IMG/VR virus record: IMGVR_UViG_3300028909_000018
Span: 1-64,000 of that record
Length of the DNA stretch: 64,000 nucleotides
DNA from: a virus
Reading direction: 5' to 3' (one strand)
The position numbers and the translations under genes were made by a program. This document shows, one piece after another, positions 6,058-33,301 of the stretch. Every line of letters starts with the position of its first letter. Within the stretch, counting starts at the first letter, position 1. The notes under the pieces are model-generated. The model was not told where the DNA came from. It ran no database searches and was given only the letters and a program-made list of their open reading frames with translations.

Positions 6058-6789
6058 TTAGTTCTCAAAGCCGAAGGCGTTGGTCTCCGAATTATCAGCA
6101 ATACTAATAATTTCTTTATTTAGGTCGTCATCATCGGTGATAGGATCAATATCCTCGGTGTCATATGATTTGATCGTGATTCTGTTAAGATTCTCATCGG
6201 TAAGAATCTTTCCATCTTCTGTTGTGTAGACATAATCGAAGACGTTAAGACTTGAAACATTCTGAATAGAATCAATTTCTGGGATGCCGGTGTTGAAGGT
6301 TTCGTCGGAATATTCAAACAATTCAAGCGTCATCTGATAGGTGGGAAGAACACCCAAGGGATAAAAGATTTCTTTATTATTTGTAAACCTGATCTGAAAG
6401 ACTTTTTTATTAAGTGTAAAGTAAATAAGGTCACCTTCCATGGGTCGAGGTTGGTTTGTAATCGGCTTGATGACACGATCAAAGGTTCTTGACGCCATCG
6501 ACAAGGTTATCTGATCTCGAATCTCCAGACCAAACTTGGTGAAGATATCTTTCTGACCCGAAAATCCATCGACGCTCTCGATATAAACAGGACACTGGAT
6601 CACCGTATTATACATAGACTGGTCGTCGGTTTCGTAAATTTTATCGAAGTTGACGATGTTACGAGGAATGTAATAAATCTCATGCCCGTTGATGGCGATG
6701 GCCTGCACGATCAAATCCTGATACAAGTCCTGCGTGGGCTTGTAGTCGAACTTATTAAAAAATGGGTTGAGATAGTTATCAAGTGCCAT
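6058..6789 (-). CDS. gp14: Neck protein gp14
   Basis: YYIPR, FTKFGLEIRD, RPMEGDLIY and ELFEYS motifs; gp13-gp14-gp15 synteny. Confidence 0.92.
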   Translation of the reverse strand: MALDNYLNPFFNKFDYKPTQDLYQDLIVQAIAINGHEIYYIPRNIVNFDKIYETDDQSMYNTVIQCPVYIESVDGFSGQKDIFTKFGLEIRDQITLSMASRTFDRVIKPITNQPRPMEGDLIYFTLNKKVFQIRFTNNKEIFYPLGVLPTYQMTLELFEYSDETFNTGIPEIDSIQNVSSLNVFDYVYTTEDGKILTDENLNRITIKSYDTEDIDPITDDDDLNKEIISIADNSETNAFGFEN

Positions 6790-7181
6790 TACTTATACTT
6801 CTTATCCAGATGAGGAAACGTTGCATCAGGATCGAGAGTATGTGGCTTGTTATGATCTGATCGTTCTCTCCATGTATTTGTGTTGGAAGAATGTAAGACT
6901 ACTCTGGCAGGATAACGTACTGATGCATTATCAGACGCATCCTTTTCATGATTATATGGACCCCAATATTTCTTTTCTTTAGGATGATAACAATAGAATC
7001 CATGTGGAATAGTGGTGGCAGTAGGAGCAGCAATAACCTTTGGGTTATCGGAAGGTGGTCTCATTCGATCCATCGCAGCCTTGGCAGCAGCCTTCTCTCC
7101 CGGTGTTCCCGGTCTATCATAAAGAGTCTTGACTTTATCGTATTTTTCTTGGGATTCGATGATATCTCTTAATCTTTTCAT
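6789..7181 (-). CDS. Putative head-packaged internal protein
   Basis: Leader MKRLRDIIE; PGTPGEKAAAKAAM helix resembling the DUF2786 motif; inserted between gp13 and gp14. Confidence 0.6.
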   Translation of the reverse strand: MKRLRDIIESQEKYDKVKTLYDRPGTPGEKAAAKAAMDRMRPPSDNPKVIAAPTATTIPHGFYCYHPKEKKYWGPYNHEKDASDNASVRYPARVVLHSSNTNTWRERSDHNKPHTLDPDATFPHLDKKYK

Positions 7182-7186
7182 TTAAA

Positions 7187-7921
7187 TTATCCGATCATCA
7201 TGCCAGCAGGGATCGAGAACGATCTGACCAGCTTGGCTTCCAGCATATCGATGTCGCTTCTGGCCTCATTATAGACGGTCTGGCCGTCGATCTTGCCTCC
7301 ACCCGGAAGCACCATGGGGATAATCTTTAGTACCGATCCCCAACGCTCCTTGATCTGCGCCGTGCAATAATCCTGAAGCCACTTGTCGGAGAACACGCCA
7401 GTATAAACGGCAGGGTCGAGGATGCCATAACATTCGACGCAGAGATATTCCCCTACGACAACCTGATCCCAATCCATATCAATATAAAGGATGTTGTTAT
7501 GACGATTGAAACGAATCGGCTGTTGGCCGACGAGCATCTGCTCAAGGAACTGAACATGCTCCATCACCATGTAATATGGAATCAGCGAGACGTTGGAGAT
7601 ATTATACAAATCATTTACGATGAACTGATAACGCATGTTGAACATGGAGTTTGTGTTCAGTGCATCACCGATAGGGAAAAGTCTCACGGCACCTATGATG
7701 TTGGCCGGAAGTGTGATATACTGGTTGGTGATGTCCTGTTGGCTGACGGAATATTTGTAATAAGTTTTATCCGACCCTTCCATATGGTACTGCGCATAGA
7801 GATACAGCGCCGTGTCGATGGCGTCGTCAACTTGCTGCTCGGAAACATTTATTTGAATAACGGGACTTCCAAGTTTTCTGAGGCAAAATTGGGCGAATTG
7901 TTCTCGTGATGTAGGGACCAT
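7187..7921 (-). CDS. gp13: Neck protein gp13
   Basis: CLRKLGSPVIQINV..QVDDAID, WLQDYCTA.IK..WG and LPGG..IDG motifs; late box 7943-7949. Confidence 0.93.
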   Translation of the reverse strand: MVPTSREQFAQFCLRKLGSPVIQINVSEQQVDDAIDTALYLYAQYHMEGSDKTYYKYSVSQQDITNQYITLPANIIGAVRLFPIGDALNTNSMFNMRYQFIVNDLYNISNVSLIPYYMVMEHVQFLEQMLVGQQPIRFNRHNNILYIDMDWDQVVVGEYLCVECYGILDPAVYTGVFSDKWLQDYCTAQIKERWGSVLKIIPMVLPGGGKIDGQTVYNEARSDIDMLEAKLVRSFSIPAGMMIG

Positions 7922-7970
7922 GGATATTCCTTTTATTTTATATATTTATCTTAAAGGAATATGACAAATA

Positions 7971-7998
7971 AAAAGGGGAGCCGAAGCCCCCCCCTTTT
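7971..7998 (-). terminator. Rho-independent terminator (TTCG loop)
   Basis: GGGGGGCTTCGGCTCCCCTTTT on the minus strand. Confidence 0.8.
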
Positions 7999-8020
7999 TT
8001 CATTTAGTAAAGTGATTAGA

Positions 8021-8179
8021 TCACTTACGAACAGAACCATGGCCCAGAGTAGCCGCCGTGGCAGGAGCCGTGGCAGCAGTATGACCACTGGTGCCAGTGG
8101 CGCTTCCGGTCTTCGCGACAGCAACGCCACTAAAACCAAGAGCAAGAGTGAGAGCAATAACAGTCAAAAGCTTATTCAT
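8021..8179 (-). CDS. 52-aa secreted peptide (not in the ORF track)
   Basis: MNKLLTVIALTLALGFSGVAVA-KTGSATGTSGHTAATAPATAATLGHGSVRK; AAGGAAA RBS; own promoter and terminator. Confidence 0.7.
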   Translation of the reverse strand: MNKLLTVIALTLALGFSGVAVAKTGSATGTSGHTAATAPATAATLGHGSVRK

Positions 8180-8237
8180 TTTTAGATTTCCTTTTCTTTA
8201 GTTTTCATATTTAGGAGGCCATCCCCCTATGAATTGA

Positions 8238-8266
8238 ATAATAGTCTATTATGATTTCGGTGTCAA
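8238..8266 (-). promoter_or_regulatory. sigma70-like early promoter
   Basis: TTGACA-17-TATTAT. Similar TTGAC(A/T)-16/17-TA...T elements lie near 8849, 9336, 9945, 40977, 45486, 46187 and 48538 (minus strand). Confidence 0.7.
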
Positions 8267-8277
8267 CCATTAAAATA

Positions 8278-8303: not shown

Positions 8304-8312
8304 AATTTTTAA

Positions 8313-19800: not shown

Positions 19801-22791
19801 GGCCGAATAATATGTGGCCTGCTGAATCTGACGATCAAGCACACCTATATCCTGCATCGTATATCTTCTGTTGGTATTATAGACGAGACTTGAAACAGGA
19901 TTACCGTCAGAATTGTTAACATCGACAACATCTGTTGTCAGCGTTGGGTATGGCGGCACGTAGATTGTTGCCAAGGTCATACCCGACTGAATATCACCAG
20001 CCGGAACAGGATTTTCTGAAGGAATACCAGAATTTATTACAATACTTCCCTGTTGTGTCAGCCCAACAACGTCATATCTTCCGACATAATATTGAAGAGA
20101 AGATTCAAATTCGGCCCCATTGACAGGAATGAAAAGATTTCCTGTCGAGAATGACAGCGTGTTGGCCGGATTGACGATAACCGTGTTGGAGACGGCAAGA
20201 GCCGCGTTGGAGACATAGGGAATCGTGTTCTGGGCATAGATGCGGAAGTCGGCGCTATTTCTTAGGTTGAAGGTCGAACCGTTGGCCTGTGAGGTATAGG
20301 TCTGGATATCCTGCGTGAAGATTGAGTTGGCGGTGACGCCAGTGTCATCAACAGGATATGAATCAATTGAGAAGAATCCGGCCCCGGTTGAAACGTCCTG
20401 TTGATAGGCCTCACACTGAACGAGAAGAAATTCTGTGTTGGAGAGAGCCGCCCCATTTGGTGTCAGGTAGGAGAGACCATAATATTCGTCTGTCTGGTTT
20501 GTGTTGAGATGGAACTGGCCTGTGATCGATGGGTTGGTGTTGGCGTAGGATGAACCATACCAAACATTAGAAACCGCGAATACGTCAGGCACACCGAGAG
20601 ACCATGGTCCCTTGGTCCCATTGACGTTGTTTGATAGGTTGATCTTGACGAAGACAGAAGTCTGAAGGCGCTTCTTGGCCGGTGAGGCGGTGATACGCTG
20701 CACAGGATAAAGCACCGAGGCGTTAAGAGTTGTTGAAAGATTATTGTTGAGGTTGACTGTGAAAGTCGTCGTGCTGCCCACGGTGATGGAAGTGTTTCCA
20801 AGCGCCATGGGAATCTGCTGACCACCAAGGAACTGAAGCGCCACGTTGCCACCAGCCCATGTGTTGGTTGCTGGTTGTGTCAGCGTCAGATATGTTGCGT
20901 TGGCAATGGCGGCAACCTGTTTGATTTCGTTGACGGTAGAGTTGGCAAGCTGGATATAGGCCCCAACATAAAGATTTGTCGCGAAGGATGTCGAGGTTCC
21001 TGTGACCACGTTACCTGATGTGGCGACTGAACCGGCGAGATTCGCGCCTGTTGCATTGCCCTCAGCAACGATGATGAAGTTTTCCTTCTGGGGAGTGGTT
21101 AGGGCTCCGGTTCCAAATGGAAGCTCGTTGGTTCCACCAGTGTATGAAGGCACGGTGACGGAGACGAGACCTGTGTTGGAGAAGTTGACAGTTGATGACT
21201 GAACGAACTGAAATTGTGTGTCAACGGTGTTAGAACTTGTCTGAAGAGTCTTGATGGCACTCTGATTGAAAGGATAAACCATCGCACCGAGGGTCGAGTC
21301 CTGAAGTGAGAATGTTCCAGCGGTAAGCACAACGTCGGCCAGTCCATAGGTTCCGGCATTGTTGGCGAAGACAGAACGAACGGAAGAGAATGACTGCCCC
21401 GAATTCATCTGGATGTTGAAAAGATATAGGTCGTAGACGCACGTATTAAGCCCCTGCACACCGTTGTCATATTCTACGGACAGAACGTTGGCCTTGCCAA
21501 TTTCGACGCCGGGAGCCACTATAGAGTTGGCGGGAATGCCCTTTGAAAGGTTGTTCGACACCGCATAGGCTGCTGCGCTTCTCAATGAGATGGACTGAAT
21601 TGTTGTTGGATTAAAGACGCCAGCAAATTCATTCACCTGAAGATAGTTACCTAGCTGCGTGGTGACGATCTGGGTAGGCGCATTCTTGACGGTGTTGCCC
21701 TTGGGAAGAACACCGAGCAACTTACCAACGATTTGAATACGATATCCGTTGACGTAACAAAGACCGGCATCAACTTCTAGCTTGATGTTGTTTGTGTCGA
21801 TGGCCCCTGTTGAGGTATAATTAATTAATGTTCTGACATTGAAGGGATTGATGACGAAGTTACCATTTGTCTCATAAGAATATTCCGCCATCTTCGCGCC
21901 AATAGTTGAGTAGACGGTATTTGAGTTGACGATGGAAGGCTGACCCGCCACGAAGTCCACAATAGAGAAGAAATTATTTGTTGAAATTGAGGTAGACTGA
22001 CGAGTCACAAGGGTAGGAACGATCTTCAGACGGTCGGCACCGGGAGACGAATAGTTAGAAACTCCCTGAGAATTATCAAGAAGACTCTGATCCTGAAAGG
22101 ATGTGACGATGGATTCAATAGACTGGAAGCCGACAGAAATATTATTTGGTTGATTGTCATAGGTGTCGATAATTAATTCTTGCTTTTCGACCTGAAGAAG
22201 CTGACCCTTCTGGAAGATGGTGCCACTTCCAACAGCCACGGCATAACTTAGGCCTGTAGTGTTGGAACTACCTGATGAAATTGTGTTGGCAACCTGAACC
22301 TGACCAAGAACGAGGTTGGCCGACGTGACGAAGTTTAGAATTTCATCATTCTGGAATACCTTGATGGCGGCATTTGATGTTGATGAGTTTAAATATGAGA
22401 CGAAGAGGGTGTTTAGGTTAGGCGACTGTGAAAGATAACCCTGAAGAGATGTTCTGACATAGGCCTTGAGACCCGAATTACTTACGGCTGTCAGACCATT
22501 CAAGTCAGCGATGGTCAGCGCCGCCCCATTCGCATAGGTGTCATTCATCTTTACATAGGCGAGATTTGACTTATAGGTGATGTTGCAGCCATCGACAATC
22601 GTGCCGTTGACGAAGATGTTCTGACCAAAGGTGCCGATCTGATTTTGAAGGACGGATTGAACAGTGTTGAATTCACGCGCCTGAACGGCGAATCCCGGCT
22701 TGTTGAGGACACGGTAATACTGAGCATTTGCATTGAAATCATCAAAATAAGGTGACTGATTTAAATTTGTATCTAAATTTCCGGTTCCCAA
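16882..22791 (-). CDS. Large baseplate-associated structural protein (DUF4815/VrlC-like, TTG start)
   Basis: NLNQSPYFDDF, VLNKPGFAVQARE, PGADRLK, RYTMQDIG.L and PIAQAF...GVYITSLDVFF motifs; late box 22822-22828. Confidence 0.85.
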   Translation of the reverse strand: MGTGNLDTNLNQSPYFDDFNANAQYYRVLNKPGFAVQAREFNTVQSVLQNQIGTFGQNIFVNGTIVDGCNITYKSNLAYVKMNDTYANGAALTIADLNGLTAVSNSGLKAYVRTSLQGYLSQSPNLNTLFVSYLNSSTSNAAIKVFQNDEILNFVTSANLVLGQVQVANTISSGSSNTTGLSYAVAVGSGTIFQKGQLLQVEKQELIIDTYDNQPNNISVGFQSIESIVTSFQDQSLLDNSQGVSNYSSPGADRLKIVPTLVTRQSTSISTNNFFSIVDFVAGQPSIVNSNTVYSTIGAKMAEYSYETNGNFVINPFNVRTLINYTSTGAIDTNNIKLEVDAGLCYVNGYRIQIVGKLLGVLPKGNTVKNAPTQIVTTQLGNYLQVNEFAGVFNPTTIQSISLRSAAAYAVSNNLSKGIPANSIVAPGVEIGKANVLSVEYDNGVQGLNTCVYDLYLFNIQMNSGQSFSSVRSVFANNAGTYGLADVVLTAGTFSLQDSTLGAMVYPFNQSAIKTLQTSSNTVDTQFQFVQSSTVNFSNTGLVSVTVPSYTGGTNELPFGTGALTTPQKENFIIVAEGNATGANLAGSVATSGNVVTGTSTSFATNLYVGAYIQLANSTVNEIKQVAAIANATYLTLTQPATNTWAGGNVALQFLGGQQIPMALGNTSITVGSTTTFTVNLNNNLSTTLNASVLYPVQRITASPAKKRLQTSVFVKINLSNNVNGTKGPWSLGVPDVFAVSNVWYGSSYANTNPSITGQFHLNTNQTDEYYGLSYLTPNGAALSNTEFLLVQCEAYQQDVSTGAGFFSIDSYPVDDTGVTANSIFTQDIQTYTSQANGSTFNLRNSADFRIYAQNTIPYVSNAALAVSNTVIVNPANTLSFSTGNLFIPVNGAEFESSLQYYVGRYDVVGLTQQGSIVINSGIPSENPVPAGDIQSGMTLATIYVPPYPTLTTDVVDVNNSDGNPVSSLVYNTNRRYTMQDIGVLDRQIQQATYYSALSVLEQSAQNLLLTNQSGQTVFQNGVLADPFNDFSIANTLDPAFNIAIDGASSEARPIFNQFLVNLNYANSASTNIEQSSDGLLLTLDYTEVKPWISQPFASQERNCAESILYNWAGTVVLSPSGNYMPDVTVNPAVVVDLNSYSNWVDLANAWTTQWGTWNETSSTTSKNTSVVGTTTTTTTSQANTYTQTGTTLSMAPVTSTYSFGNVVTDVSLQPFCQAQLIKFYANGLKPNTQVWTYFNDKSISQYCVQTDSNYNILPTSTMITDAIGQLWGYFYLPANTFYTGSINFQIMDISNLITQSNIITTIASCEYQGTNLAYTVNNLTLQTTEPQISTTTVSQSMVTYANNTTVTTPQIIPPNPGNAVWNGTYWFVEHEPIAQAFSILSTNLPQNVQGVYITSLDVFFAATDPSLGITVMIRDMVNGYPGIDIQPGSQVHVLPSQINTSQNASVGTNILFPEPVFLASGSDYCFVIIPDGANPNYDLWTGVISGTDVLTNAPIYTLSFIGDMFLSSQNSTWTAFQNEAIKFNLNIADFTASQGVAVYNNDDTDYLEVYSTSRVFTLGEPVYYSNTVIQAANISVSNVSTTVTGNTTGLLANTKIYLFSNTNNSTMVANVNSVTTGSFVINTVPIFTDNNCSMGMLTSNGGLTGIIKTVNSSVISVGNSTANSTVYLSTNNGIIIGSRSLASAAIATLNDVPYDTFMPKFAVSIPSVTTLNFTMKGVANSFNSYSADPSQTSLTFGQSTDFLDKERVVMSKSNEMRYNSGNKSLTVYGNMTSTSPYLSPAINNVKSGALCIQNLINGEDSNNDVFTSEITNSGQAIDKYISTTVTLLQGMEAENLTVYLGAYYPANTSIYCYAKLLNQYDNDPFSSKSWTPMYTTNLTRSSQINNQDFNQYIFNFANSLPSGNAFLNTAYLNGANNGLVSYTSNSGVNYATFDTFAIKLVLLSNAGSYLVPRLTDMVAVCTSV

Positions 22792-22838
22792 GATATTTTC
22801 CTTCTTCTTTACAATATGTTTTATTTATTGTAAAGAAA

Positions 22839-23510
22839 TCAGACTATCTTCATGTGGTGGGTATGATTATGATATTCAAGAGTCTCGGCCCCATCAAAAT
22901 CTGCGGGAGGAACAGTATGTACTTTGGTCGTCGTCCTGAGATGTTTAAGTTTCGTCCCGCGAGGCAGCACCATCTCATCCTCACCATAATCAAGATGTGC
23001 GACAGGATGCCCTTTAGGGATTGTAAACTTCAGAAGATGACGATGCCTCACATGAAGTCCTACCGTGGATTTTTCCATATTTTGTCTATCATTTCTTTTG
23101 GCGAAGTTTTCCGCGACTGATCTGTTTATACTTGTTGATAAGTAGGCAGGATGTTCGACAATTCCATCTTTATCCTTTATTTTTCGAGGATCATGGCGTG
23201 TTCCTGAATATACCTGAATATCACGATGAGCCTTGATATGATTTATCGCCTCATCCATCTTCTTCGTATCATCTTCATTATCTCTATTAACATAAACATT
23301 CGATGAATTCTGGCTTTTATTCCAATGATAATTATTCAGTTCTTTTGAAGAATTCGAATAATTTTGCAACGCCTTTGTATGATTATAGTCATCATATTTA
23401 AAATGATCTCTTAATTCGTCATTTGCCTTCTTCGCCTTTCTGTAAAGATTCATAGTATTGGGTGGCGAAGTCTCCCATTTCTCGTTGAGTATTTCTTTTA
23501 ATTTTTTCAT
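22839..23510 (-). CDS. ADP-ribosyltransferase-like (VIP2/Alt-type) protein with packaging-like leader
   Basis: MKKLKEILNE; VYSG, YLSTS, GEDEMVLPRG. Confidence 0.8.
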   Translation of the reverse strand: MKKLKEILNEKWETSPPNTMNLYRKAKKANDELRDHFKYDDYNHTKALQNYSNSSKELNNYHWNKSQNSSNVYVNRDNEDDTKKMDEAINHIKAHRDIQVYSGTRHDPRKIKDKDGIVEHPAYLSTSINRSVAENFAKRNDRQNMEKSTVGLHVRHRHLLKFTIPKGHPVAHLDYGEDEMVLPRGTKLKHLRTTTKVHTVPPADFDGAETLEYHNHTHHMKIV

Positions 23511-24127
23511 TTGACAATATCCATTGAATGTTCGTGAACCGTCGTGGCTGGATTAATAACACCCCCATAAGGAACCTGATGTGTCTGTGTACCTCGATAC
23601 TTCAGCTTTGTTCCTCGTGGAAGGATGAATTCCTCTTCGCCGGGGTTATTAGTATGATGTTCCACATAACCACCGGGATGACCCTTGGGAACATTAATCT
23701 TCAGTACATGACCGACAACATTTTTATCTGTGATATCTGTTCCAGAGAAGAACTTGGCCGTGTGTTTATGAAGACTACTAGAAAGATAGGCAGGATGCTC
23801 CACCACACCCTTGGAATCCATTTTATTCCTTGGATCATATTTAATACCGGAATAGACAGAAAGCTTGTGAGGCGTCTTGTGTCTATTCAGTGCCGCATCC
23901 ATGTCTTCCTGATTAGATTCATGATTTATTTTGATAGGATATTTCTTATCCTGATGTCTTTCCCATGCATAATTATTCATGTCTTCTGAACTTGTTGTAT
24001 AATGATGAATTATGTCTTTATCTTCATCATTATACTTGCTGTAATGTTGAGTGAGAGTATTATTGAGATGTTTTGGTTTGGCCTGAGACTTCCAATTTGT
24101 TTCTAGGATGAGACTAAGCTTTTTCAT
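23507..24127 (-). CDS. ADP-ribosyltransferase-like (VIP2/Alt-type) protein
   Basis: MKKLSLILE; VYSG, YLSSS, GEEEFILPRG. Confidence 0.8.
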   Translation of the reverse strand: MKKLSLILETNWKSQAKPKHLNNTLTQHYSKYNDEDKDIIHHYTTSSEDMNNYAWERHQDKKYPIKINHESNQEDMDAALNRHKTPHKLSVYSGIKYDPRNKMDSKGVVEHPAYLSSSLHKHTAKFFSGTDITDKNVVGHVLKINVPKGHPGGYVEHHTNNPGEEEFILPRGTKLKYRGTQTHQVPYGGVINPATTVHEHSMDIVK

Positions 24128-24687
24128 TTCAACTCCTTGACGTGACTTCCATTAGGCACCACGGCTGAAATAGAACCAACATCCTCGCCATCATTCTTAT
24201 AAAAATAACCCTTCTTGGCGTTACCCTTCTTCAGTGATCCTTTCATCAGACCATTGGCCTTACTATCAGAGTGGGGAGAATACTTGGTATTGGTCATTGG
24301 CCCTGTGATGGCGTAAGGTTTAATCGATGGTCTGACATTCATCGGCATCTCTTCCCCATTGTCATATTTAATAGGATGATCGGGATGCTCATGGGGAAAG
24401 TAATCATTATCCATCTTATGACAATTATGACCAGACTTTGTGTATGGTCCAATTTTCTCTAGTGTTCTGTTCCCGGCTAGTTTGGTCTTGCCGTATTCTC
24501 TCGTCCCATCCCATGTGCCTTCTGCTGGTATGCCTATACGGGCATTGAGGGCAACCTTAGCCGCCTCATGGGTTCCTAGGTGGAGGCCTGATGTTCCGCC
24601 TCTCAGGTCACCAGAAGCCGACCCATGCCACCACCATGCATTTCTTAGATGATCCTCGTTCTCTGTGATATGGCGAAGTTTTTTCAC
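24124..24687 (-). CDS. Putative ART-PolyVal-like (His-class) ADP-ribosyltransferase fold protein
   Basis: MKKLRHITE; WHGS...GLHLGT..AA and C-terminal GYFYKNDGEDVGSISAVV...HVK. Confidence 0.55.
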   Translation of the reverse strand: MKKLRHITENEDHLRNAWWWHGSASGDLRGGTSGLHLGTHEAAKVALNARIGIPAEGTWDGTREYGKTKLAGNRTLEKIGPYTKSGHNCHKMDNDYFPHEHPDHPIKYDNGEEMPMNVRPSIKPYAITGPMTNTKYSPHSDSKANGLMKGSLKKGNAKKGYFYKNDGEDVGSISAVVPNGSHVKELK

Positions 24688-27600
24688 ATCTGCACCGTGA
24701 GGTTAAATGAAGACTTAGAATTCGCCGTCATGGTGAAGGGCGAGGTATAACTTAGATAGATGACATCACCTGTATTTCTGATCAGATCAGGATAGGAAAT
24801 CGTGTTGGCGATTTGCACCAGACCTTGAGCCCCGGAAGTATTTCCTGTGATGGTGTTAGGCGCGACTTGGAAGGGGAATTGATTGAGAAGATCACCGACG
24901 ATGAGAACAGTATAGACGTTGCCCACGGTGCCGTTGGCGGTGATGGTCGAGATGGTATGACCATTACCGAAGGTTCCGTTGACGGCTGTCAGCTTGAGAT
25001 AGGTGGTGTTGGCATATTTGATGATGGCCGTCGCGGCTGAATTCGCATCAGTCACCACGATACCTGTGCTCATCACGCCTGTAATTGGTGTATAAGAAAG
25101 ATCAACATCATGCGTGGTGTCAAGGATCAAGGCGTTGGCGTTGGTGACGGCCTGATTAATGAATTCTCCCACCTGAAACAGGACCAGATTGTTGGATGAA
25201 AGAGTGAGACGCGATGTCTGATTGAATCTCTGACCAAAGGATGTGGTGGCGTCGATGGTGCCATTCGCAATCGCCATAGAAATCACATTGGCGTATGCGT
25301 TGGTTGTCGAATCAAAGATTTGCTGGTTGGATGAGAACTTCCCGCCTACCGCCGTCAGTCTGATTTGATTGTTGGTGACGACCTCCGAAAGAAGGCCATT
25401 GGCGGAATTGTTGGTTCCCCTCACCACCTGATTGTTGGCGATATAGTTGAATAGCTCTGGTGTGAAGGTGAGCAGCCTGCTTGAGGCTCCTGACTTCAGG
25501 CCCAGCACCGTGCTGTTGGCCGATGAGTTTGATGTGTTGGAGACAAAGTTTCCATTGATATTATCCAATTCGAGGAAGGTCGAGTTGGCAGTTTTCACCA
25601 GACCGGCAGAATTGGTTGATGGTTGATAGATGATTTCCCCATTGACGAAATTATTCGACACCGACACCGTGATATTTGCTGATGAGCGATGTACATTATC
25701 CGTGTTGACATAAAGGTCAAAGAACAGAGGATTCTTGATGATTCCCACCTTGCGATACTGACCCATCGAAGGATAATAATAATTTTCGTTTGCCGCCGTA
25801 TCGATGGTCACGGCGATACCGGCATATCTCGCCCCTAGTTCTGAATAGGCATTGGCCCCATGGCCTTCCGCAGGTGAGAGGACGGGATAGATGTTGGCCC
25901 CGCTACCATAGAGACCATTGGAAGAGATATAGGCGCTGGCGTTGGTGTATTGCTGTCCTGTGTTGATCATGACAATATCAGAGATGGGATAATTAGCCCC
26001 GAATGCGGTGTTGACGACCGAATAGGCCTGAGCCCCATTTCCATCACCGACGAAATTTACCGTGGGAGAAATGATATACTGAGTCAGACCCGATGGCGAA
26101 AAGAATGAGGACAGCAATGTCGCATTACCCGAGACCTGACCGTTGGCGTAATATGACTGGACCTTGTTGCCAGAGATAAACTGACCCAAAGAACTTCCCA
26201 ATGTGATATTAGGATATGAAGAAATGCTCTGCACCTGTGCCTTCAGGGTGGAAGACTGGCCCACAAGAAATAGATTGTTGTTGACCACACCGTTGATGGA
26301 TGAAAGAACCATGGCGGTGGAGTTGACGAAGGAGACGATGGCGTTTGTACTCTGATCGACCCCATTGGCGTTATATTCCTTCAACGTCTCACCGAGGATG
26401 AATGAGAGGCTGTTGGACGAGACGTTGCCATAGTTGATGATGATCGAATTAAGATTGGTCTGGATGATCACGCCGTTGGCTGTCGATAATGTCGAAGAGA
26501 CGGGTTCGGCGGCGAAGGACATGTTATAATGAACGTTGGCCACCAACGTATTATTGAAAGGAATCGATACCGTCGCATATGACGAATTTGTGATCGAGGT
26601 AATTCTTCGCACATTGTTATAGGTGTTGCTGCCCACCTGAATGAAGTTGTTGACGGAATAGGTGAGAAGGTTGGCCCCGGCTCCCCCTGTCACGACGTTG
26701 GAGGTTGCGGTGATCGAGACCACACCGGCCTTTAATGATCCTGATGAGACGGTATCAACTAATGGATAGTTGGCGCTGAAGTTTGTGTTTGAAGTTTGAT
26801 TTAGGGCGATGGTCGTTGAGTTGGAAGTCTCGATGACGCCTGACGCGCCAGTGTCGGATTGAAGCAGCGTATCGCCAGCATTGAAATATCCCTGTGGGAA
26901 TATGTAGGAAACATAGGTGACATTCTGAATCACCGACTCGCCAATGATAAAGTTTCCTAGGAGATCGGGTGCAAGATATAAATTAATGAAAGTATTAAGG
27001 GACGGGGTGACGCCGACAGTCTGGGTTCCACCATGGTAGGATGTGATGAGACGAAGCTGATTCGCCCCCAACCCCCCATTCAAATAAATAGATGATCCCA
27101 CATAATATCCATCAATTCCGACGCCTGTTGTGCCAATCTTGATGGTATTTTGATCAACAACAGATGTGATATAATTCTGATCATACGCCTGATACCCCGA
27201 TCCTCCACTGACGATGCGCGTGATATCTATGGTGCCGGGAACAGCATTATTGGAAACAAATGTGTTGGGAACAACAGGAACAAAATTATTAGATGTGAAT
27301 GTAGTATTAGCGTTAGTTGGAATAGTGAACATGAACTTCCAATTGTAACCATCAGAAGTTTGAAATGTGCCTGAAGTAGGAGTAATAAGTGGCTGAACAG
27401 TTGATGGTGCTCCATTATTGTTGTCGATACACTTGTAAAGAGAATTATTATTATTCAGAACATAAAACTGCTTGTTGAAAAGATTCGCATCATTGGGATC
27501 ATACTGTGTGTATACGGTGTTGGCCAGCCATGTGTACTGTGGCACGAGGAAGGAAATATTGTTGTTGGTGATCTGCTTGCCTAACACGATAGAATGAAAA

Positions 27601-27770
27601 ATATCCTGTTCAAAGTTTTGATAATCATTCTGGGCGGAAGGAGGGATGCTGTCGTTGGGCCATGGGATCGTGCCACCGACGAAGAAGTAATAGGCCGAGT
27701 TGGGACTATTCACGTCATTGATGAAGTTTTCAATGTTATTTACAAAAAATTTCTCTGTTAATACTGGCAA
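24684..27770 (-). CDS. gp8: Baseplate wedge gp8-like protein, enlarged by Asn-rich inserts
   Basis: YFFVG...W, W..NTVYTQYD, FYV.N...LYKCIDNN.GAPSTVQP, TSDGY.WKFMFTI and YRKVGIIKNP motifs; TTG start 27770 (or 27776). Confidence 0.8.
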   Translation of the reverse strand: MPVLTEKFFVNNIENFINDVNSPNSAYYFFVGGTIPWPNDSIPPSAQNDYQNFEQDIFHSIVLGKQITNNNISFLVPQYTWLANTVYTQYDPNDANLFNKQFYVLNNNNSLYKCIDNNNGAPSTVQPLITPTSGTFQTSDGYNWKFMFTIPTNANTTFTSNNFVPVVPNTFVSNNAVPGTIDITRIVSGGSGYQAYDQNYITSVVDQNTIKIGTTGVGIDGYYVGSSIYLNGGLGANQLRLITSYHGGTQTVGVTPSLNTFINLYLAPDLLGNFIIGESVIQNVTYVSYIFPQGYFNAGDTLLQSDTGASGVIETSNSTTIALNQTSNTNFSANYPLVDTVSSGSLKAGVVSITATSNVVTGGAGANLLTYSVNNFIQVGSNTYNNVRRITSITNSSYATVSIPFNNTLVANVHYNMSFAAEPVSSTLSTANGVIIQTNLNSIIINYGNVSSNSLSFILGETLKEYNANGVDQSTNAIVSFVNSTAMVLSSINGVVNNNLFLVGQSSTLKAQVQSISSYPNITLGSSLGQFISGNKVQSYYANGQVSGNATLLSSFFSPSGLTQYIISPTVNFVGDGNGAQAYSVVNTAFGANYPISDIVMINTGQQYTNASAYISSNGLYGSGANIYPVLSPAEGHGANAYSELGARYAGIAVTIDTAANENYYYPSMGQYRKVGIIKNPLFFDLYVNTDNVHRSSANITVSVSNNFVNGEIIYQPSTNSAGLVKTANSTFLELDNINGNFVSNTSNSSANSTVLGLKSGASSRLLTFTPELFNYIANNQVVRGTNNSANGLLSEVVTNNQIRLTAVGGKFSSNQQIFDSTTNAYANVISMAIANGTIDATTSFGQRFNQTSRLTLSSNNLVLFQVGEFINQAVTNANALILDTTHDVDLSYTPITGVMSTGIVVTDANSAATAIIKYANTTYLKLTAVNGTFGNGHTISTITANGTVGNVYTVLIVGDLLNQFPFQVAPNTITGNTSGAQGLVQIANTISYPDLIRNTGDVIYLSYTSPFTMTANSKSSFNLTVQM

Positions 27771-27804
27771 AATCAATCCTCTTTTTGATTATTTATTAGA
27801 GGAA

Positions 27805-28452
27805 TTATACGACCTCCATGTGGTGGGTATGTGTGGTGGTTCTCCACATGGTTTCTTCTGGATCGACCTTGGTCTCTGTTCTGATATGTTTCATATTGGT
27901 GCCACGAGGCAACATGAATTCCATCTCAGACTTTAGTGCCAGACCAGAGTGGGCGATATAGGCACCGGGATGACCTTCTGGAACATGAATCTTCAGCACA
28001 TGCCTATGAAGCATCTCACCTTTTCTTGTTGCTAATCTGTCACCAAATTGCTTGGAGACACCTTTATCCAATGAGGTAGAAAGATAAGATGGATGATGAA
28101 CAATATTATTTTCATCCTTTATCTCCCGAGGATCATGCTTGGTCCCTGAGTAGACCACCATTTTCTTTGGCGTCTTATGAGAATGAATGATCGAATCCAA
28201 GTCCCGTGACTTCTCATCAATGTTTTCATTAGGAACCCTGCTACCCTTGGCCTTCTTCCAGTGGTAATCATTAATGGTCCGAGAGTTATTGGTGTAGGCA
28301 TCCAAGGCTTTTTTGTGTGGCAAATCCATGCTCTTGGCGTCGATGTCGGAGTAATGCTTCGCCAGTTCATGATGTAGAATATAAATCTTCCCATCCTTAT
28401 GTGGCAACACATCCCATGGACCTTCGTTTAAAATATCCTTGAGTTTTTTCAT
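27805..28452 (-). CDS. ADP-ribosyltransferase-like (VIP2/Alt-type) protein
   Basis: MKKLKDILNE; VYSG, YLSTS, SEMEFMLPRG. Confidence 0.8.
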   Translation of the reverse strand: MKKLKDILNEGPWDVLPHKDGKIYILHHELAKHYSDIDAKSMDLPHKKALDAYTNNSRTINDYHWKKAKGSRVPNENIDEKSRDLDSIIHSHKTPKKMVVYSGTKHDPREIKDENNIVHHPSYLSTSLDKGVSKQFGDRLATRKGEMLHRHVLKIHVPEGHPGAYIAHSGLALKSEMEFMLPRGTNMKHIRTETKVDPEETMWRTTTHTHHMEVV

Positions 28453-28892
28453 CGTAGTTTATCCGCCTTTATATTGAATTGTGTCTCACCATTACTAACA
28501 CTATGTTGATAGTCAGGATCGATGTGTTTGGCCATCGCATGATAAAGCTTGGTCCTACCACCATCATCATTCTTGGATGTGAAATTTAGGTGGGTAATCT
28601 GTGGATTCGCCTTGAGATGTTGCCTGATGACGTTCTTGACCGTGCTGAATACCTTATGGGCGTGTCTTCCCTCGGTGCCAGTCATATCCATCGAATCCAT
28701 CGAATCGTTCGTGAAGTATACATCAGCCACATGATTTTTTGGGTGGCTCATATTTCTGATGAAGGCGTTATATGCACCACCATTCTTAGAATTGAAGTAG
28801 GCGTCTGACTGATCAGGCTTGTATGACTTGTTGGTGAATTTATAGGATGAGTCACCAATCTCATTGATTACGATATCTCTAAGCTTTTTCAT
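28449..28892 (-). CDS. Putative head-packaged internal protein of unknown function
   Basis: MKKLRDIVINE; KVFSTV...FTS....GRTKLY. Confidence 0.6.
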   Translation of the reverse strand: MKKLRDIVINEIGDSSYKFTNKSYKPDQSDAYFNSKNGGAYNAFIRNMSHPKNHVADVYFTNDSMDSMDMTGTEGRHAHKVFSTVKNVIRQHLKANPQITHLNFTSKNDDGGRTKLYHAMAKHIDPDYQHSVSNGETQFNIKADKLR

Positions 28893-30895
28893 GGCTGCAC
28901 CAATCCTGTGTTGGTCTGTTGATAATCATTTACCTTGTATCGACCGAATAATTTCATCTGAACAGGATGCATGATATCATTAACAAACTTTTGATAAGTA
29001 TCCAACATGCGTGGAGCCTGAACCTCGTAGGCGAAGGTCTGATAGTAGAATGAATCCTGAAGGTATGTGGTGTCGGAAGTGAAGGACTGATTATTGAGGT
29101 AATATCCTTGTGACTTGCCTGTTCCATCGACAATGGCCGTTCCCTGTGCGTAGATTTGACCGTTGCCATAGATCGACACCGGCTCACCCGGCTGAAATCC
29201 ATAACCAGAATCCACCACCTGAAGAGATGTCATGATTCCTGCCAGATTATTCGCCGTCGCAACCACATTGGCGTCACCACCAAGATAACCACCATGACCA
29301 TCGGGAATCTGCATCTGGAAGATCAATGGCTCCACGATGGTCACGGCTGGGCTTGACGTATAGAAGTCGCCGGGACTCTCGCGGGTCAGGGTAGAAATCT
29401 TACCGGCGACAATTGTCTGATAGGTGAGGGCCAGATTGATTGGTGTGTCAAAGTTAGAATTTAATAAAATACCAGGGAAAATCCAATTGGTGTCTCTAAC
29501 GGTGGAATTGATATAGGCATGGGCGAGGGAAGTCTGACCATGGACATTTGATGTGGGGAGGAAATAACCGTTGGCGACATCAATATTCAAGGTGGATGTG
29601 TTGGCGAAGGTCACCGTGCCATTGGCGTTATAATTAATTAGATTGCCCACCGAATTCACCCTGATGACATTACCCGATGAAGAGCCGACCAGAGAGACGC
29701 CGCTAATCAGGTTGGCGTTTAGAAGCTGCGTCTGTGGTCCTGTAAGCGCCACATAGGAAGGGTTGTCAATCGCGATGACCTGAAGCCCACTGATGCCGAG
29801 AGACGTGTTGGAGAGGGTTTCCAGATTGGTGAGAGCATTTCCCACCGTATAGGCGAAATCAAGATAGATGCCGTTGGCGTTTGAGTTGACGACCTCTCCC
29901 ACGGTGAAGGAGGCCGAGGCATTGGAAATATTCAGGGTGAAGCCTTCGGCCGAGTTATCCAACTGTGTGTTATAATATCCACTGATGATATCCGTATCGA
30001 TGGAATAAACTTTTTGATCGATGATATTTCCGATGGAAAATGTCGCGCCTGATCCGCCTCCACCAACCACGGTGATCTGGGCATTAACGGAGAATCCGTC
30101 GCCACCATCCGCCAGCGTGAACACCACCTTGCCATTTTCTGAATGGATCGAGGCGACTCTTCCTAGGGCCGAGGCACCGCTACCAGTGATATTGACCACA
30201 TCACCGACATTAAACTGACCACCACCATCATCAATCGAGATAGCCGAGAGAGAGCCGATGATTGTCGCCGTGTTGAAAGTTGTGAGTTGAGGAAGATCAA
30301 CCGAGAGAACATATTCACCATATCTGAAGTTGCCCACCACGTTGGAGAGCGTCAGAACATTGATAACCTTGTTGTTCAGCGTGATGAGGTTATAATCTTC
30401 CACCAGCGCCGTGGCGAGGCTGGATGAGGAATAGATGGTGCAACCAACCATCTCTGGCAGGAATTGATTGTTGGTGACCTCGATATAGGATTTCTGGACC
30501 CATGTGTTGTTGGATGTTCTGAAAAGATTCTGGCCGGGATAATAGAACTCGATATCTTCGTTGAAGAGAATTCTGAACAGCAACTCATAACCACGCTTGG
30601 TTCCTGTGGCTCTCCATAGGTCTTGAATATGTTTAATTAGAAGTCTCGTATCAACCATGAGATTGTTGGGCAGGGAGCCGAGATATTCGTCCTTGAAATA
30701 TTGTACAAAATCATCGGGCGTGGTGTCGATGTCACTATATTCGCCCAACTTTCTAGAATGATAAAGAACGTTGTTGGCCGACTCCATCCACTGATAATAG
30801 GCCTTGGTGAAGGAGACGAAGGTGTTGCCGTCAGGACCACGATAGAAGGCAGGGAACTGACCCGGAATATATTGGTTTGTGATTAATTCGGTCAT
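28889..30895 (-). CDS. gp7: Baseplate wedge gp7-like protein
   Basis: F..AYYQWME, LIKHI.D.W...GT...YELLFRILFNE and LQDSFYYQ.FAYE...MHP..MKLFG motifs; follows gp6. Confidence 0.75.
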   Translation of the reverse strand: MTELITNQYIPGQFPAFYRGPDGNTFVSFTKAYYQWMESANNVLYHSRKLGEYSDIDTTPDDFVQYFKDEYLGSLPNNLMVDTRLLIKHIQDLWRATGTKRGYELLFRILFNEDIEFYYPGQNLFRTSNNTWVQKSYIEVTNNQFLPEMVGCTIYSSSSLATALVEDYNLITLNNKVINVLTLSNVVGNFRYGEYVLSVDLPQLTTFNTATIIGSLSAISIDDGGGQFNVGDVVNITGSGASALGRVASIHSENGKVVFTLADGGDGFSVNAQITVVGGGGSGATFSIGNIIDQKVYSIDTDIISGYYNTQLDNSAEGFTLNISNASASFTVGEVVNSNANGIYLDFAYTVGNALTNLETLSNTSLGISGLQVIAIDNPSYVALTGPQTQLLNANLISGVSLVGSSSGNVIRVNSVGNLINYNANGTVTFANTSTLNIDVANGYFLPTSNVHGQTSLAHAYINSTVRDTNWIFPGILLNSNFDTPINLALTYQTIVAGKISTLTRESPGDFYTSSPAVTIVEPLIFQMQIPDGHGGYLGGDANVVATANNLAGIMTSLQVVDSGYGFQPGEPVSIYGNGQIYAQGTAIVDGTGKSQGYYLNNQSFTSDTTYLQDSFYYQTFAYEVQAPRMLDTYQKFVNDIMHPVQMKLFGRYKVNDYQQTNTGLVQP

Positions 30896-32670
30896 CAGTT
30901 ATTCGCGATGTTGATGAAGAGCCCACCGATGGAGTCCACTTCGATAATATCATTTCCCACAGGGTAAATATCCTGATTCTGTGGCGTGGCGTAGATCGAG
31001 AGACTTGTGTACCCATTGGGATATCCAGAAATATTCATGTTGGTCATATTTATGTAGCCATTCGCATAGTTGACCGTGCCAATCTGGGTCGGATTTATAA
31101 CCGCGTTATTGGAGAAATATTGGATGATATAAACCAATGAGGAAGGCGTGTTGGGAACAATCTTATCCGTCAGCACATAAGTATTTGATCCCATCATGAA
31201 AGGCGACGACGCCATGGCGGTGATGGGATTATTGAAGACGACAGTAGCCGAGGCGTTGGTGTTGAGGATGACGCTTACATCCTTTCGCATCATGATAGAA
31301 GTCTCATTACTCAGGATGGATTCATCGATATCATTGATACTCTGGACCAGCTTTGAATATCTGAATGGCGTGGTGAACTTCTGAAGATTGTTGCTGGAGA
31401 AGTTGATGATGTTATTCGAGACCACGGTCTTGTAGTCGGAGGCCGAGATGGTTGACTGTGTGAAGTCCACATGCACGTTAGAAGTCACCTGAAGGTAGAG
31501 AATAGAAGGATCAACGAACATCACCTGATAATTTATGATGTCATAGTTTTGAATGAAAGTCTGGATTTGATTTTTGAGAGCGGCGGTGGCGGGGTTGCCG
31601 TTGTTTGTCACCAGCGCAATGAAGATGATACCGAACTGCACCCCTGTCGTCGTGATCCCGCCTGAGTAGACGCTACAGTCGGTAATAGACGGGAAATTTT
31701 CCAAAACCAGAGTCTTGAAGTTATTCGTGGTAACGGCGTTTTCCTGCGTCTGATAATGACGAGGATTATTAAAACGAATCGAGTCGATTGATTCCGCCGA
31801 TGATCCACCCGAGGAAGAACTTAAAGGCGTGATGGAAACGTAGTAAGTCGAGCCGCCATTATAGGCAGAGAGACTAGATGAAAGTGAGAACATGTTGACG
31901 TAGTTAGCATCCGCGCCATTGGTGACGCGATAGGTGGCGACGAGGGTGGAACCAGACTGAGGAACATATCCCATCACGCCATCACCAAATTGAATCTGAT
32001 AGTTGTTAGATGAAGCCGCCTGAAGGAAGTAAATATGTGAATTACTATTCAGACCATAAAGATTCTTGGCCTCGGTGAAGATTGTGTTGGTCGATCCGGC
32101 ATTTTCCGCGACATAGACGGAGAGCGAATTGGTGTCGATGTTGGGGCTTGAAAGAGTGAATAGTTGGTTGTTGACGCTGTTGTCCACAGAAAATATGTCG
32201 GCCTTGTTATAGCCTTCGTATATCACCACATTGGCGAAGTAGAAATTATTGTTGGATGAGGTAATCACATAGTTCTGGTCGGTGACAAACGAGAATGATC
32301 CGTTGGAATTCTGTCCACTGAAAATACTGCCACGAGGAATTTCAAATGTGTTGATGTTATTTGCCTGAATGGTGATGTTCAGGGATGTCGAGGCGGAAGA
32401 CATCGAGTAAGGAATATAATTCAGTTCCTTGGCCTTGGAGACCAGACTGTCACGAAGTTGGGCCGAATCATTGAAACGTTCCGAGAACGACATATTCATA
32501 TAGAAAGAGTTGATGAATGTGTTACGCGCCAGCACATCGAGCAGCACGTTCATGTTCGATCCGCTGAAATCATAGTCACGGAAAATAGACTGATTCTGGA
32601 GCCAATTTATTTGATTGGCCTTCAGGGTATCAGGATCAAGGCTCGTGAGGGTGATATTTGTGTTGGCCAT
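30895..32670 (-). CDS. gp6: Baseplate wedge gp6
   Basis: LD.D.LK, DYDFSGSNMNVLLDVLA.NT, SAQLRDS, FGDG..G and ESIDSIR..P..Y.TQ motifs; ATG 32670 after late box 32691-32697. Confidence 0.92.
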   Translation of the reverse strand: MANTNITLTSLDPDTLKANQINWLQNQSIFRDYDFSGSNMNVLLDVLARNTFINSFYMNMSFSERFNDSAQLRDSLVSKAKELNYIPYSMSSASTSLNITIQANNINTFEIPRGSIFSGQNSNGSFSFVTDQNYVITSSNNNFYFANVVIYEGYNKADIFSVDNSVNNQLFTLSSPNIDTNSLSVYVAENAGSTNTIFTEAKNLYGLNSNSHIYFLQAASSNNYQIQFGDGVMGYVPQSGSTLVATYRVTNGADANYVNMFSLSSSLSAYNGGSTYYVSITPLSSSSGGSSAESIDSIRFNNPRHYQTQENAVTTNNFKTLVLENFPSITDCSVYSGGITTTGVQFGIIFIALVTNNGNPATAALKNQIQTFIQNYDIINYQVMFVDPSILYLQVTSNVHVDFTQSTISASDYKTVVSNNIINFSSNNLQKFTTPFRYSKLVQSINDIDESILSNETSIMMRKDVSVILNTNASATVVFNNPITAMASSPFMMGSNTYVLTDKIVPNTPSSLVYIIQYFSNNAVINPTQIGTVNYANGYINMTNMNISGYPNGYTSLSIYATPQNQDIYPVGNDIIEVDSIGGLFINIANN

Positions 32671-32701
32671 ATCTTCTTTCTTTTTATAGATATTTATTGC
32701 T

Positions 32702-33301
32702 TCATACAACCTTCATGTGGTGGGTGTGGACCATGGTTCCAAAATCTGTTTCTTTGGATTCTGTCTTGATGTGTTTTAAGTTTGTTCCACGAGGCAGGAT
32801 CATCTCTCTCTCGGTCGATAATCCTAAATTCGCGGCATAGGCGGTAGGATGACCCTTGGGAACATGAATTTTCATGATATGTTTCACAAGATTTGATTTT
32901 GATACATGATTCCCGGCGAATTCATGTGCAACTCTTTCCCTCAATGAGGTAGAAAGATAGGCAGGATGATGAACAATACCCCCAGAATTCATGTGCTCCC
33001 TTGGGTCGATCTTGGTTCCACTATAGACTTTTAGGCTTGTGGGTGACTTGTGACTTGCTATGGCGGCATCAAGAGCCTGTGATTTGTCGTGTAACTCATG
33101 ATTAGTATAGTCATCATGTTCATATTCTTCCCCATGATGCTTCGCCCAATGATAACCATTCATGGCTCGGGCCACACGAGACTTCTGATAGTCTCTAATC
33201 GCTCCAAAATGAGGATATTCATAGTCATAATGACTAGATATTTTATGATCTACAGTTGAGGCTCTGCTTTTATCATCAACAATTTCTCTTAAATATTTCA
33301 T
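32702..33301 (-). CDS. ADP-ribosyltransferase-like (VIP2/Alt-type) protein
   Basis: MKYLREIVD; VYSG, YLSTS, TEREMILPRG. Confidence 0.8.
   Translation of the reverse strand: MKYLREIVDDKSRASTVDHKISSHYDYEYPHFGAIRDYQKSRVARAMNGYHWAKHHGEEYEHDDYTNHELHDKSQALDAAIASHKSPTSLKVYSGTKIDPREHMNSGGIVHHPAYLSTSLRERVAHEFAGNHVSKSNLVKHIMKIHVPKGHPTAYAANLGLSTEREMILPRGTNLKHIKTESKETDFGTMVHTHHMKVV

Follow-up and report, generated by a model that had tools for sequence, protein, structure and literature searches.

The window analysed here, the first 64,000 nucleotides of a 107,554-base viral record, carries seven short genes on its minus strand that begin with the same MK-x-L-x-x-I leader. A first-pass annotation had picked out these open reading frames, and a check of the ORFs at their coordinates confirmed all seven together with the N-termini it had quoted. 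Their surroundings are neck and baseplate genes rather than head genes, and the identities that had been proposed for the neighbours were upheld, gp15 also being confirmed among them. The features are listed below.

6058..6789, minus strand: neck protein gp14 (phrog_679; PF11649, T4 neck protein), downstream of the 130 aa tagged gene
6789..7181, minus strand: tagged protein, 130 aa, MKRLRDIIE..., between neck genes gp13 and gp14
7187..7921, minus strand: neck protein gp13, head-tail adaptor (phrog_211, E 1e-33), upstream of the 130 aa tagged gene
7943..7949, minus strand: ATAAATA box ahead of gp13
22822..22828, minus strand: late-promoter-like ATAAATA box that follows the third cluster and precedes a 1969 aa structural gene
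22839..23510, minus strand: tagged C3/VIP2-type ADP-ribosyltransferase (ART), 223 aa, MKKLKEILNE... (PF03496, 37 bits), with an ATGA overlap with the upstream gene
23507..24127, minus strand: tagged C3/VIP2-type ART, 206 aa, MKKLSLILE... (PF03496, 64.7 bits)
24124..24687, minus strand: tagged protein with a probable H-Y-E-type ART fold, 187 aa, VKKLRHITE..., with a GTG start in a GTGA overlap (AF2 fold)
24684..27776, minus strand: 1030 aa baseplate wedge subunit with a weak resemblance to gp8 (phrog_438, E 1.5e-66; weak PF09215 match)
27790..27796, minus strand: ATAAATA box that follows the second cluster and precedes the 1030 aa wedge gene
27805..28452, minus strand: tagged C3/VIP2-type ART, 215 aa, MKKLKDILNE... 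(PF03496, 67.6 bits)
28449..28892, minus strand: tagged protein with a probable GNAT fold, 147 aa, MKKLRDIVINE..., DUF6934-related (AF2 and Foldseek)
28889..30895, minus strand: baseplate wedge subunit, 668 aa, in the gp7 position (phrog_17744, E 2e-104)
30895..32709, minus strand: baseplate wedge protein gp6 (phrog_219, E 2e-135)
32691..32697, minus strand: ATAAATA box that precedes gp6, behind the 199 aa ART
32702..33301, minus strand: tagged C3/VIP2-type ART, 199 aa, MKYLREIVDD... (PF03496, 48.4 bits)
33301..33717, minus strand: baseplate wedge protein gp25 (phrog_261, PF04965)
33734..33740, minus strand: ATAAATA box ahead of gp25, opening the unit in which the 199 aa ART is the last gene

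The true start of gp6 is probably near 32670, past the box at 32691-32697. The tagged genes follow their upstream neighbours closely, as had been described: stop and start codons overlap by 4 bases (ATGA or GTGA) at five of the junctions and by a single base behind gp25, and gp13 is separated from the tagged gene behind it by 5 bases. A fresh ATAAATA box does indeed follow each of the three baseplate clusters (at 22822, 27790 and 32691). This heptamer occurs 35 times against 13.3 expected, a number reached in none of 100 shuffles, and 30 of the 35 occurrences are on the minus strand. Every tagged gene lies within, or at the 3' end of, a unit headed by such a box, and at the level of sequence the tagged genes would belong to late transcription units together with virion genes.

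When the whole record was scanned, the leader followed by a [LIVTFM]-x-E site was found on 7 of 506 ORFs of at least 50 aa, exactly the seven tagged genes and all in late structural operons, while the background of the leader pattern at internal Met positions of the same record was 4 of 697. No tagged ORF was found in the other 80 kb of the 107.5 kb scanned. Chance is ruled out as the source of the shared pattern. Position 4 is Leu and position 7 is Ile in all seven leaders, and six carry I/L-x-E, its Glu being residue 9, 10 or 11. The leaders had been described as ending in Glu, which holds for these six but not for the seventh, that of the 199 aa ART, where L-R-E occupies residues 4-6 and I-V-D residues 7-9, so that Asp replaces Glu at residue 9. 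Across relatives, position 4 is Leu or Phe and position 7 is Ile, Leu or Phe in each of 61 non-redundant leaders, with Glu maxima at positions 9 and 10. Where a downstream x-E site is missing, L4-x-E6 is found in 15 of 17 leaders, compared with 7 of the 44 others (Fisher p = 2e-7, a value inflated by shared ancestry). Leader codons vary from gene to gene and the DNA upstream is unconserved, so the conservation is at the protein level. In the AF2 models of the 187 aa and 147 aa proteins the leader forms a short helix and the first ten residues have a pLDDT of 52 to 56, as would be expected of a flexible appendage. Furthermore, hhalign between the ART, H-Y-E and GNAT-fold families gave alignments limited to residues 1-9 or 1-13; the tag is modular, placed on families that differ in fold and have nothing else in common at the profile level.

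All seven proteins are single-domain and small (130 to 223 aa), and they are basic and rich in His and Lys as previously noted, with a pI of 8.9 to 9.5 (record median 5.96) and a His content of 5.4 to 11.1% (record 1.8%). Four are ARTs of the VIP2/Alt type, as annotated, scoring 37 to 67.6 bits against PF03496, for which the gathering cut-off is 23.4 bits. Their STS and catalytic ExE motifs are invariant and align to those of CdtA, and the 215 aa ART has profile matches to CdtA, iota Ia, C3 and Vip2. The beta-1 Arg (the Y/F-R motif of the R-S-E triad) is replaced by Ser in all four and in most of 49 relatives, YRG being kept by a minority subclade of four relatives, while D-P-R is conserved five residues past the Ser-for-Arg site (V-Y/W-S-G) in the C3-type ARTs. 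Since most of these ARTs are without the canonical beta-1 Arg, their catalytic activity is not assured. Similarity to the R-S-E toxins CdtA, iota Ia, C3, Vip2 and C3larvin, for which profile matches reach E-values down to 2e-11, does not extend to secretion or binary-toxin domains, which the window ARTs do not have.

The 187 aa protein had been called ART-PolyVal-like, an assignment that Pfam does not bear out: neither it nor any of its 57 aligned homologues matched any Pfam family at E up to 1, ART-PolyVal included. The resemblance to ARTs is at the level of structure. Its AF2 model (pLDDT 91) has the ART fold in about 40 of its top 50 structural neighbours, but with Z only up to 5.1; these neighbours include AcrIF11, RES, MbcT, ParT, PARPs and diphtheria toxin/exotoxin A, and H21, Y65 and E168 are invariant in the family. 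Two proteins had been left as unknowns. For the 130 aa protein this description stands, as it had no Pfam or PHROG match and its ESM Atlas model was of low confidence and gave no usable structural match, while homologues with the same leader were found in relatives L013 and L006. The 147 aa protein, on the other hand, probably has a GNAT fold: with its AF2 model (pLDDT 88), all top Foldseek matches were GNAT acetyltransferases (probability 1.00, E about 4e-4, TM 0.4 to 0.5). PF22028 is matched by its HMMER relatives and Atlas neighbours, not by the window protein itself, and in relatives the PF22028 domain is found fused to Tad3, Zeta toxin or NT5C.

The tag is conserved across relatives. Among metagenomic homologues it is carried by most of those of the ARTs (no fewer than 99 of the 120 best), by about half of 120 for the H-Y-E family (for example MKTFKDFIAEAK) and by nearly all standalone DUF6934-like relatives, each of these counts being inflated by shared ancestry. 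The slots between conserved structural genes of relatives, likewise located between tail and neck genes, hold from 0 to 8 tagged genes each, which is the variation that the first-pass annotation had suggested looking for. ART paralogues, four here, number up to about a dozen in relatives, and one L013 slot holds seven ARTs that all have the same window gene as their best match. The head module (gp20 to gp23, including gp21) was not found in the record, which is 62% complete. Since gp21 is missing from it, protease specificity has to be read from relatives. A gp21-family prohead protease was found in relatives G001 and G003; in relatives the protease itself begins with MKLLSELQE or MKLITEIID, and the gene between portal and protease, the position of a core protein, begins with MKTFRELLEAK or MKRFSELLEDK. 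In G001 the major capsid protein keeps L-x-E where T4 gp23 is cleaved, its LAE aligning with LTE65.

These features closely parallel the internal proteins of T4, where IPII and IPIII begin with MKTYQEFIAE and IPI with MKTFKEF...ITE, and the leaders of some metagenomic homologues are near-identical to those of T4. In both cases a leader of about ten residues starts with MK, is hydrophobic at positions 4 and 7 and ends in [L/I]-x-E, which is the motif of the T4 head protease (PMC9026906). Mutagenesis of the T4 capsid targeting sequence (CTS) has traced targeting to residues 4 and 7, and processing to residues 8 and 10, and Asp at the position of the cleavage-site Glu blocks processing (PMC9026906). 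The T4 proteins are likewise small, basic (PMC9026906) and expressed late, and are unrelated cargos with the tag alone in common (PMC3012670). The cargos here differ in being recognisable enzymes of ART and GNAT folds, whereas those of T4 are small inhibitors such as IPI*; the seven genes occupy neck/baseplate slots and are translationally coupled, unlike the separate ip loci of T4; the position of the cut site varies (E6, E9, E10 or E11); and the lineage is very distant from cultured phages, none of which has a gp6 more than 37% identical to the one here.

T4 Alt offers a second parallel. It too is an ART of the PF03496 superfamily with an N-terminal pro-peptide (MELITELFDE, removed by gp21), and its gene adjoins baseplate genes 48 and 54; Alt is delivered with the DNA, as the window ARTs would be by inference. 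However, Alt is a single-copy protein of 682 aa, whereas the window ARTs have about 200 aa, barely beyond the catalytic domain, and YS where Alt has YR. Comparison by hhalign gave a probability of 53% over 94 columns, in the catalytic region only, and the PHROG 802 matches are weak (E about 1e-6). Given the difference in size and the confinement of similarity to the catalytic region, orthology with Alt was rejected. The polyvalent proteins of phages and conjugative elements, for which host RNA polymerase or defence has been proposed as the target, are also described as injected payloads that join ART and GNAT domains (Iyer et al. 2017, as cited in PMC7824862). DUF6934-like domains, fused to Tad3, Zeta toxin or NT5C, are found in proteins of this type. 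In contrast to one giant polypeptide, the window has one small, individually tagged protein per domain; membership of this class was rejected on that single-domain organisation and on the absence of an ART-PolyVal Pfam match.

Since the tag is very like the T4 capsid-loading signal with its protease cut site, the tagged enzymes are probably packed in the head and injected with the DNA. We propose, with a probability of roughly 0.7, that they are capsid-targeted, protease-processed, host-modifying enzymes, the 9 to 11 residue leader being this lineage's own version of the T4 CTS. The first-pass annotation had likewise suggested one address tag on several head-packaged cargo folds, and each prediction that this makes for sequence held (CTS match, modularity, restriction, slot variation and late units). 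From this we infer core binding, cleavage, packaging, injection and the targets of the proteins, as follows. The seven genes would be transcribed late from the promoters of the preceding structural genes, with translation mostly coupled. The leader would dock on the scaffolding core of the assembling prohead via its hydrophobic positions 4 and 7, and a gp21-type prohead protease would then cut it off after the Glu of [L/I]-x-E. The basic mature enzymes would be kept in the head alongside the DNA and be delivered to the host together with it, modifying host proteins ahead of any phage gene expression; ADP-ribosylation would be the reaction of the five ART-fold proteins, acylation that of the GNAT-fold protein. 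They may serve to take over transcription or translation, or to inactivate defence proteins.

The location of the genes also suggests another destination. The leader could be a docking or assembly tag for a different virion compartment, with the enzymes in or on the neck, the baseplate or the tail lumen, since all seven genes are inside neck/baseplate operons, coupled in translation to gp13, gp25 and two wedge proteins, and the slots of relatives have similar surroundings. Gene position is a poor predictor, however, as the location of alt in T4 illustrates, and the leader resembles the T4 CTS, which is specific to the head, as well as the way the prohead protease and the core-position gene begin, and carries the head protease motif; we consider this destination improbable. 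It is similarly unlikely that the enzymes are late but unpackaged, the leader being a removable pro-peptide or regulatory helix that inactivates them or directs them within the producing cell, where late modification of phage or host proteins, or a block to superinfection, could be their role. Such a role is consistent with expression from ATAAATA units and with the short helix of the AF2 models, but would leave unexplained one tag on unrelated folds, the mimicry of the CTS capsid-targeting residues and the uniform basicity of the proteins.

MKK starts are frequent in well-expressed genes, and tandem paralogues are many, as in the L013 slot with its seven ARTs, so the shared N-terminus might have no targeting role and reflect either the common descent of duplicated 5' ends or selection at the translation start (AAA-rich MKK). 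We give this very little credence: the leaders are encoded by differing codons and preceded by unrelated DNA, families of different folds bear the tag and no other gene in the record does, and conservation at positions 4 and 7 and at the x-E site extends well past the first three codons, with the E6 site compensating where the later x-E site is missing.

If the proteins are capsid-targeted as we propose, the locus would be a variant and not the new system for which it had been put forward. That diverse T4 internal proteins have only a CTS in common and that the ART Alt is packaged are both established (PMC3012670, PMC9026906), and since these proteins already embody the principle, the novelty had been overstated; what is new here is the cargo set and its layout. 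A broader reading is possible, but we hold it only tentatively and think it rather doubtful: that in widespread uncultured T4-related phages a sequence-readable tag defines the whole injected set, that its main cargo is a new ART subtype in which the NAD-binding Arg has been relocated (Y-S-G...D-P-R), and that rapid tandem expansion, from none to eight genes per slot, tracks a defence arms race rather than RNA polymerase takeover. Were this so, the tagged ARTs and the GNAT-fold protein would be anti-defence enzymes loaded in advance, with novel targets or a novel chemistry.

The seven minus-strand open reading frames that the first-pass annotation had grouped by a common N-terminal leader of 9-11 residues (MK-x-L-x-x-I, for example MKKLKEILNE) are present as described, and for the one beginning at 24687 the frame and leader are real while the start codon is GTG.

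6789-7181, minus strand, 130 aa protein
22839-23510, minus strand, C3/VIP2-type ADP-ribosyltransferase (ART)
23507-24127, minus strand, C3/VIP2-type ART
24124-24687, minus strand, 187 aa protein, putative H-Y-E-type ART fold
27805-28452, minus strand, 215 aa C3/VIP2-type ART
28449-28892, minus strand, 147 aa protein, predicted GNAT fold
32702-33301, minus strand, C3/VIP2-type ART

The genome-wide scan that had been proposed, taking in every ORF of at least 50 aa in all of the 107,554-base record, found the leader with a nearby [LIVTFM]-x-E in exactly these seven of 506 ORFs, the background for the same pattern being 4 of 697 internal Met positions. Since the leader codons vary between the seven genes and the DNA upstream is unrelated, selection acts on the peptide; a leader kept as a DNA recombination signal is ruled out by the same differences in codons and flanks. 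All seven proteins are basic, with a pI of 8.9 to 9.5 where the median is 5.96, and their His content is high (5.4 to 11.1%, compared with 1.8%).

This IMG/VR virus record is linear, with completeness estimated at 62%, and the window covers its first 64 kb. The structural genes in it are of T4 type (gp13, gp14, gp15, gp25, gp6, a pair of large baseplate wedge proteins, tail fibres and lysozyme), with the closest cultured gp6, that of Caulobacter phage Cr30, at 37% identity. Megablast of 12 kb against 50,697 cultured phage records gave no nucleotide match, and tblastn against these records found none for the 215 aa ART or for the 187 aa protein, so that there is no annotated relative from which function could be taken; judged by these searches, the lineage is remote from any cultured phage. 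Searches of this record for gp21, the prohead protease (PF03420), and gp23 (PF07068) found neither, as the head module from portal to major capsid protein lies outside the fragment. We therefore examined the head genes of the related genome G001 (145 kb, 84% complete).

The leader behaves as a module. When the ART family profile is compared with the profiles of the H-Y-E and GNAT-fold families, the alignment is confined to residues 1-9 or 1-13, which bears out the earlier proposal of one tag on several cargo folds. Across 27 related IMG/VR loci there are 72 leader-bearing ORFs, and with the first 12 residues removed these group as a large ART family plus at least five further families. Some database leaders, MKTFKDFIAEAK and MLRFKEFIAESGD among them, are nearly identical to the T4 capsid targeting sequence (CTS), which begins IPII and IPIII as MKTYQEFIAE; IPI begins MKTFKEF...ITE, Alt begins MELITELFDE and T4 gp21 has LIE at residues 7-9. 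Mutagenesis of the CTS has assigned capsid targeting to residues 4 and 7 and processing to residues 8 and 10, with Asp at residue 10 blocking processing while targeting is kept (PMC9026906). All of 61 non-redundant leaders have L or F at position 4 and I, L or F at position 7; Glu stands at position 9 in 25 and at position 10 in 15, with a hydrophobic residue two positions before it. L4-x-E6 occurs in 15 of the 17 leaders that have no later site versus 7 of the 44 others (p = 2e-7, relatedness not corrected for), which is the outcome expected if selection keeps one or more protease sites in each leader. In G001, the prohead protease starts MKLLSELQE, a gene between portal and protease starts MKTFRELLEAK, and LAE in the major capsid protein aligns to the LTE65 cleavage site of T4 gp23; the related locus L020 has the same pattern. 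From these relatives we infer that the prohead protease would act on the leaders. A complex prediction that paired the G001 protease with residues 1-40 of a tagged ART from G001 scored 0.00, which speaks neither for nor against binding. The G001 portal gene itself (L031:1186-4707) encodes 1,173 aa with HNH-endonuclease-like matches at residues about 580 to 710, a stretch that suggests an intein or inserted homing element.

Taken together, we put the probability that the leader is a capsid-targeting sequence at about 0.7. The tagged genes stand among neck and baseplate genes, and the leader could instead be a docking tag for tail or neck; with such N-termini also found on head genes of G001, we hold this to be unlikely. 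Cut sites could also belong to pro-enzymes that are made late and not packaged, and here the constancy of positions 4 and 7 has to be set beside the cut sites; the chance of this seems to us similarly small. That the leader has no targeting role, with its peptide kept on otherwise unalignable families, is the least probable reading of all.

Returning to the cargos of a putative capsid-targeting sequence, four are PF03496 ARTs whose STS and ExE motifs align with those of their relatives CdtA, iota Ia, C3 and Vip2; to T4 Alt they are only weakly related. All four have Ser (V-Y-S-G) in place of the canonical beta-1 Arg of the R-S-E triad, and D-P-R is conserved five residues after it. This pattern, V-Y/W/F-S-G across the family, is found in most of 49 ART relatives from loci that include L001-L024, and Y-R-G is retained in a small subclade of four (L030:8719-9429, L011:4237-4947, L023:10561-11880 and L009:16726-17433). 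R109 is a candidate substitute for the missing Arg. Of the 120 best-matching ART homologues in large protein databases, at least 99 have both leader and cut site.

The 187 aa protein has no Pfam match, alone or via 57 homologues. The structural neighbours of its model (pLDDT 91) are nearly all of the H-Y-E-type ART fold, including AcrIF11, RES, MbcT, ParT, PARPs, diphtheria toxin and exotoxin A, at modest Z (up to 5.1); Foldseek returned nothing below E 0.1, and the fold assignment comes from the VIA-align ranking. His21, Tyr65 and Glu168 are invariant in the family, and about half of 120 database homologues have the leader. The contigs that carry four of its homologues (P0050, P0053, P0056 and P0075) are 200 to 555 kb long, so the family is also present in cellular genomes or very large phages. 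The model of the 147 aa protein (pLDDT 88) matches the GNAT acyltransferase fold in Foldseek with probability 1.00. Its HMMER relatives include multi-domain proteins combining DUF6934 repeats with Tad3, Zeta toxin or NT5C, and nearly all standalone DUF6934-like relatives in large protein databases have the leader; a full-text literature search found no paper on DUF6934 function. The relatives P0243-P0391 reach 1,500 aa with 2 to 7 DUF6934-like repeats, Tad3 (a Thoeris inhibitor), Zeta toxin, NT5C and a nucleotidyltransferase-like motif being fusion partners, and many start M-R-x-x-E-[LFI]-x-E, which may be another type of leader for head loading or cleavage. Pfam, PHROGs and ESM Atlas gave no usable match to the 130 aa protein, and a homologue was found at one extra viral locus and no more.

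The tagged genes join their neighbours by ATGA/GTGA overlaps (five junctions), a 1-base overlap (one) or a 5-base gap (one). ATAAATA occurs 35 times versus 13.3 expected (0 of 100 shuffles reach 35), with strong strand bias, and precedes gp13, gp25, gp6, the 1030 aa wedge gene and the 1969 aa gene. By these positions the tagged clusters close box-headed late units, as had been claimed, with the exception of the 130 aa gene, which sits within one. The full T4 late box TATAAATA was rejected as the enriched signal (5 matches versus 2.5 expected), only the 7-mer being enriched. One box, at 34980, lies inside the 5' end of a predicted 442 aa ORF upstream of gp25 (33742-35070), which shares 86% identity with a portion of a 1,346 aa ORF in the close relative L001 (L001:546-4586). 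The gene after the third tagged cluster (16882-22791) encodes a structural protein of 1,969 aa that contains DUF4815 and is kept in L013 and G001 at 65 to 73% identity. A homing-endonuclease-like gene (2859-3545, phrog_314) lies amid the structural genes, and its homologues adjoin gp13 or gp14 in L009, L011 and L024.

Variation of the slots among relatives, raised at first pass, is found: the structural genes are fixed anchors and the number of tagged genes between them differs greatly.

Tagged genes per slot in related viral genomes and loci
G001 slots: none or one
L004, gp6 to 668 aa wedge gene: four
L013, after 1030 aa wedge gene: eight in a row
L009, around gp14 and gp15: about a dozen

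Since all the L013 copies have as their best match the window gene in the corresponding slot, their sequences point to local tandem expansion.

It is already established in T4 that the internal proteins are diverse, with only a CTS in common, and that Alt is a packaged ART (PMC3012670, PMC9026906). ART and GNAT domains are known from injected polyvalent proteins as well (PMC7824862). A full-text literature search found no paper linking the CTS to ART cargo other than Alt. New here, besides the remote lineage, are a predicted cargo set of enzymes only in which small ART paralogues dominate, a putative ART subtype without the beta-1 Arg, the apparent provision of each single-domain protein with its own tag, and the placement of these genes within neck and baseplate operons, in slots that appear to be translationally coupled. 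Should the tag function as its T4 counterpart does, sequence alone would suffice to list the proteins that uncultured T4-related phages inject, and enzymes modifying host proteins would dominate among them. Candidate effectors for takeover or anti-defence in the first minute could be catalogued in this way, among them the ART variants, the GNAT/DUF6934 family and an H-Y-E ART family without a Pfam model. The leaders would also offer naturally occurring variants with which to engineer phage capsids for protein delivery, and a concrete test of how far CTS and gp21 processing reach beyond the T-even phages.
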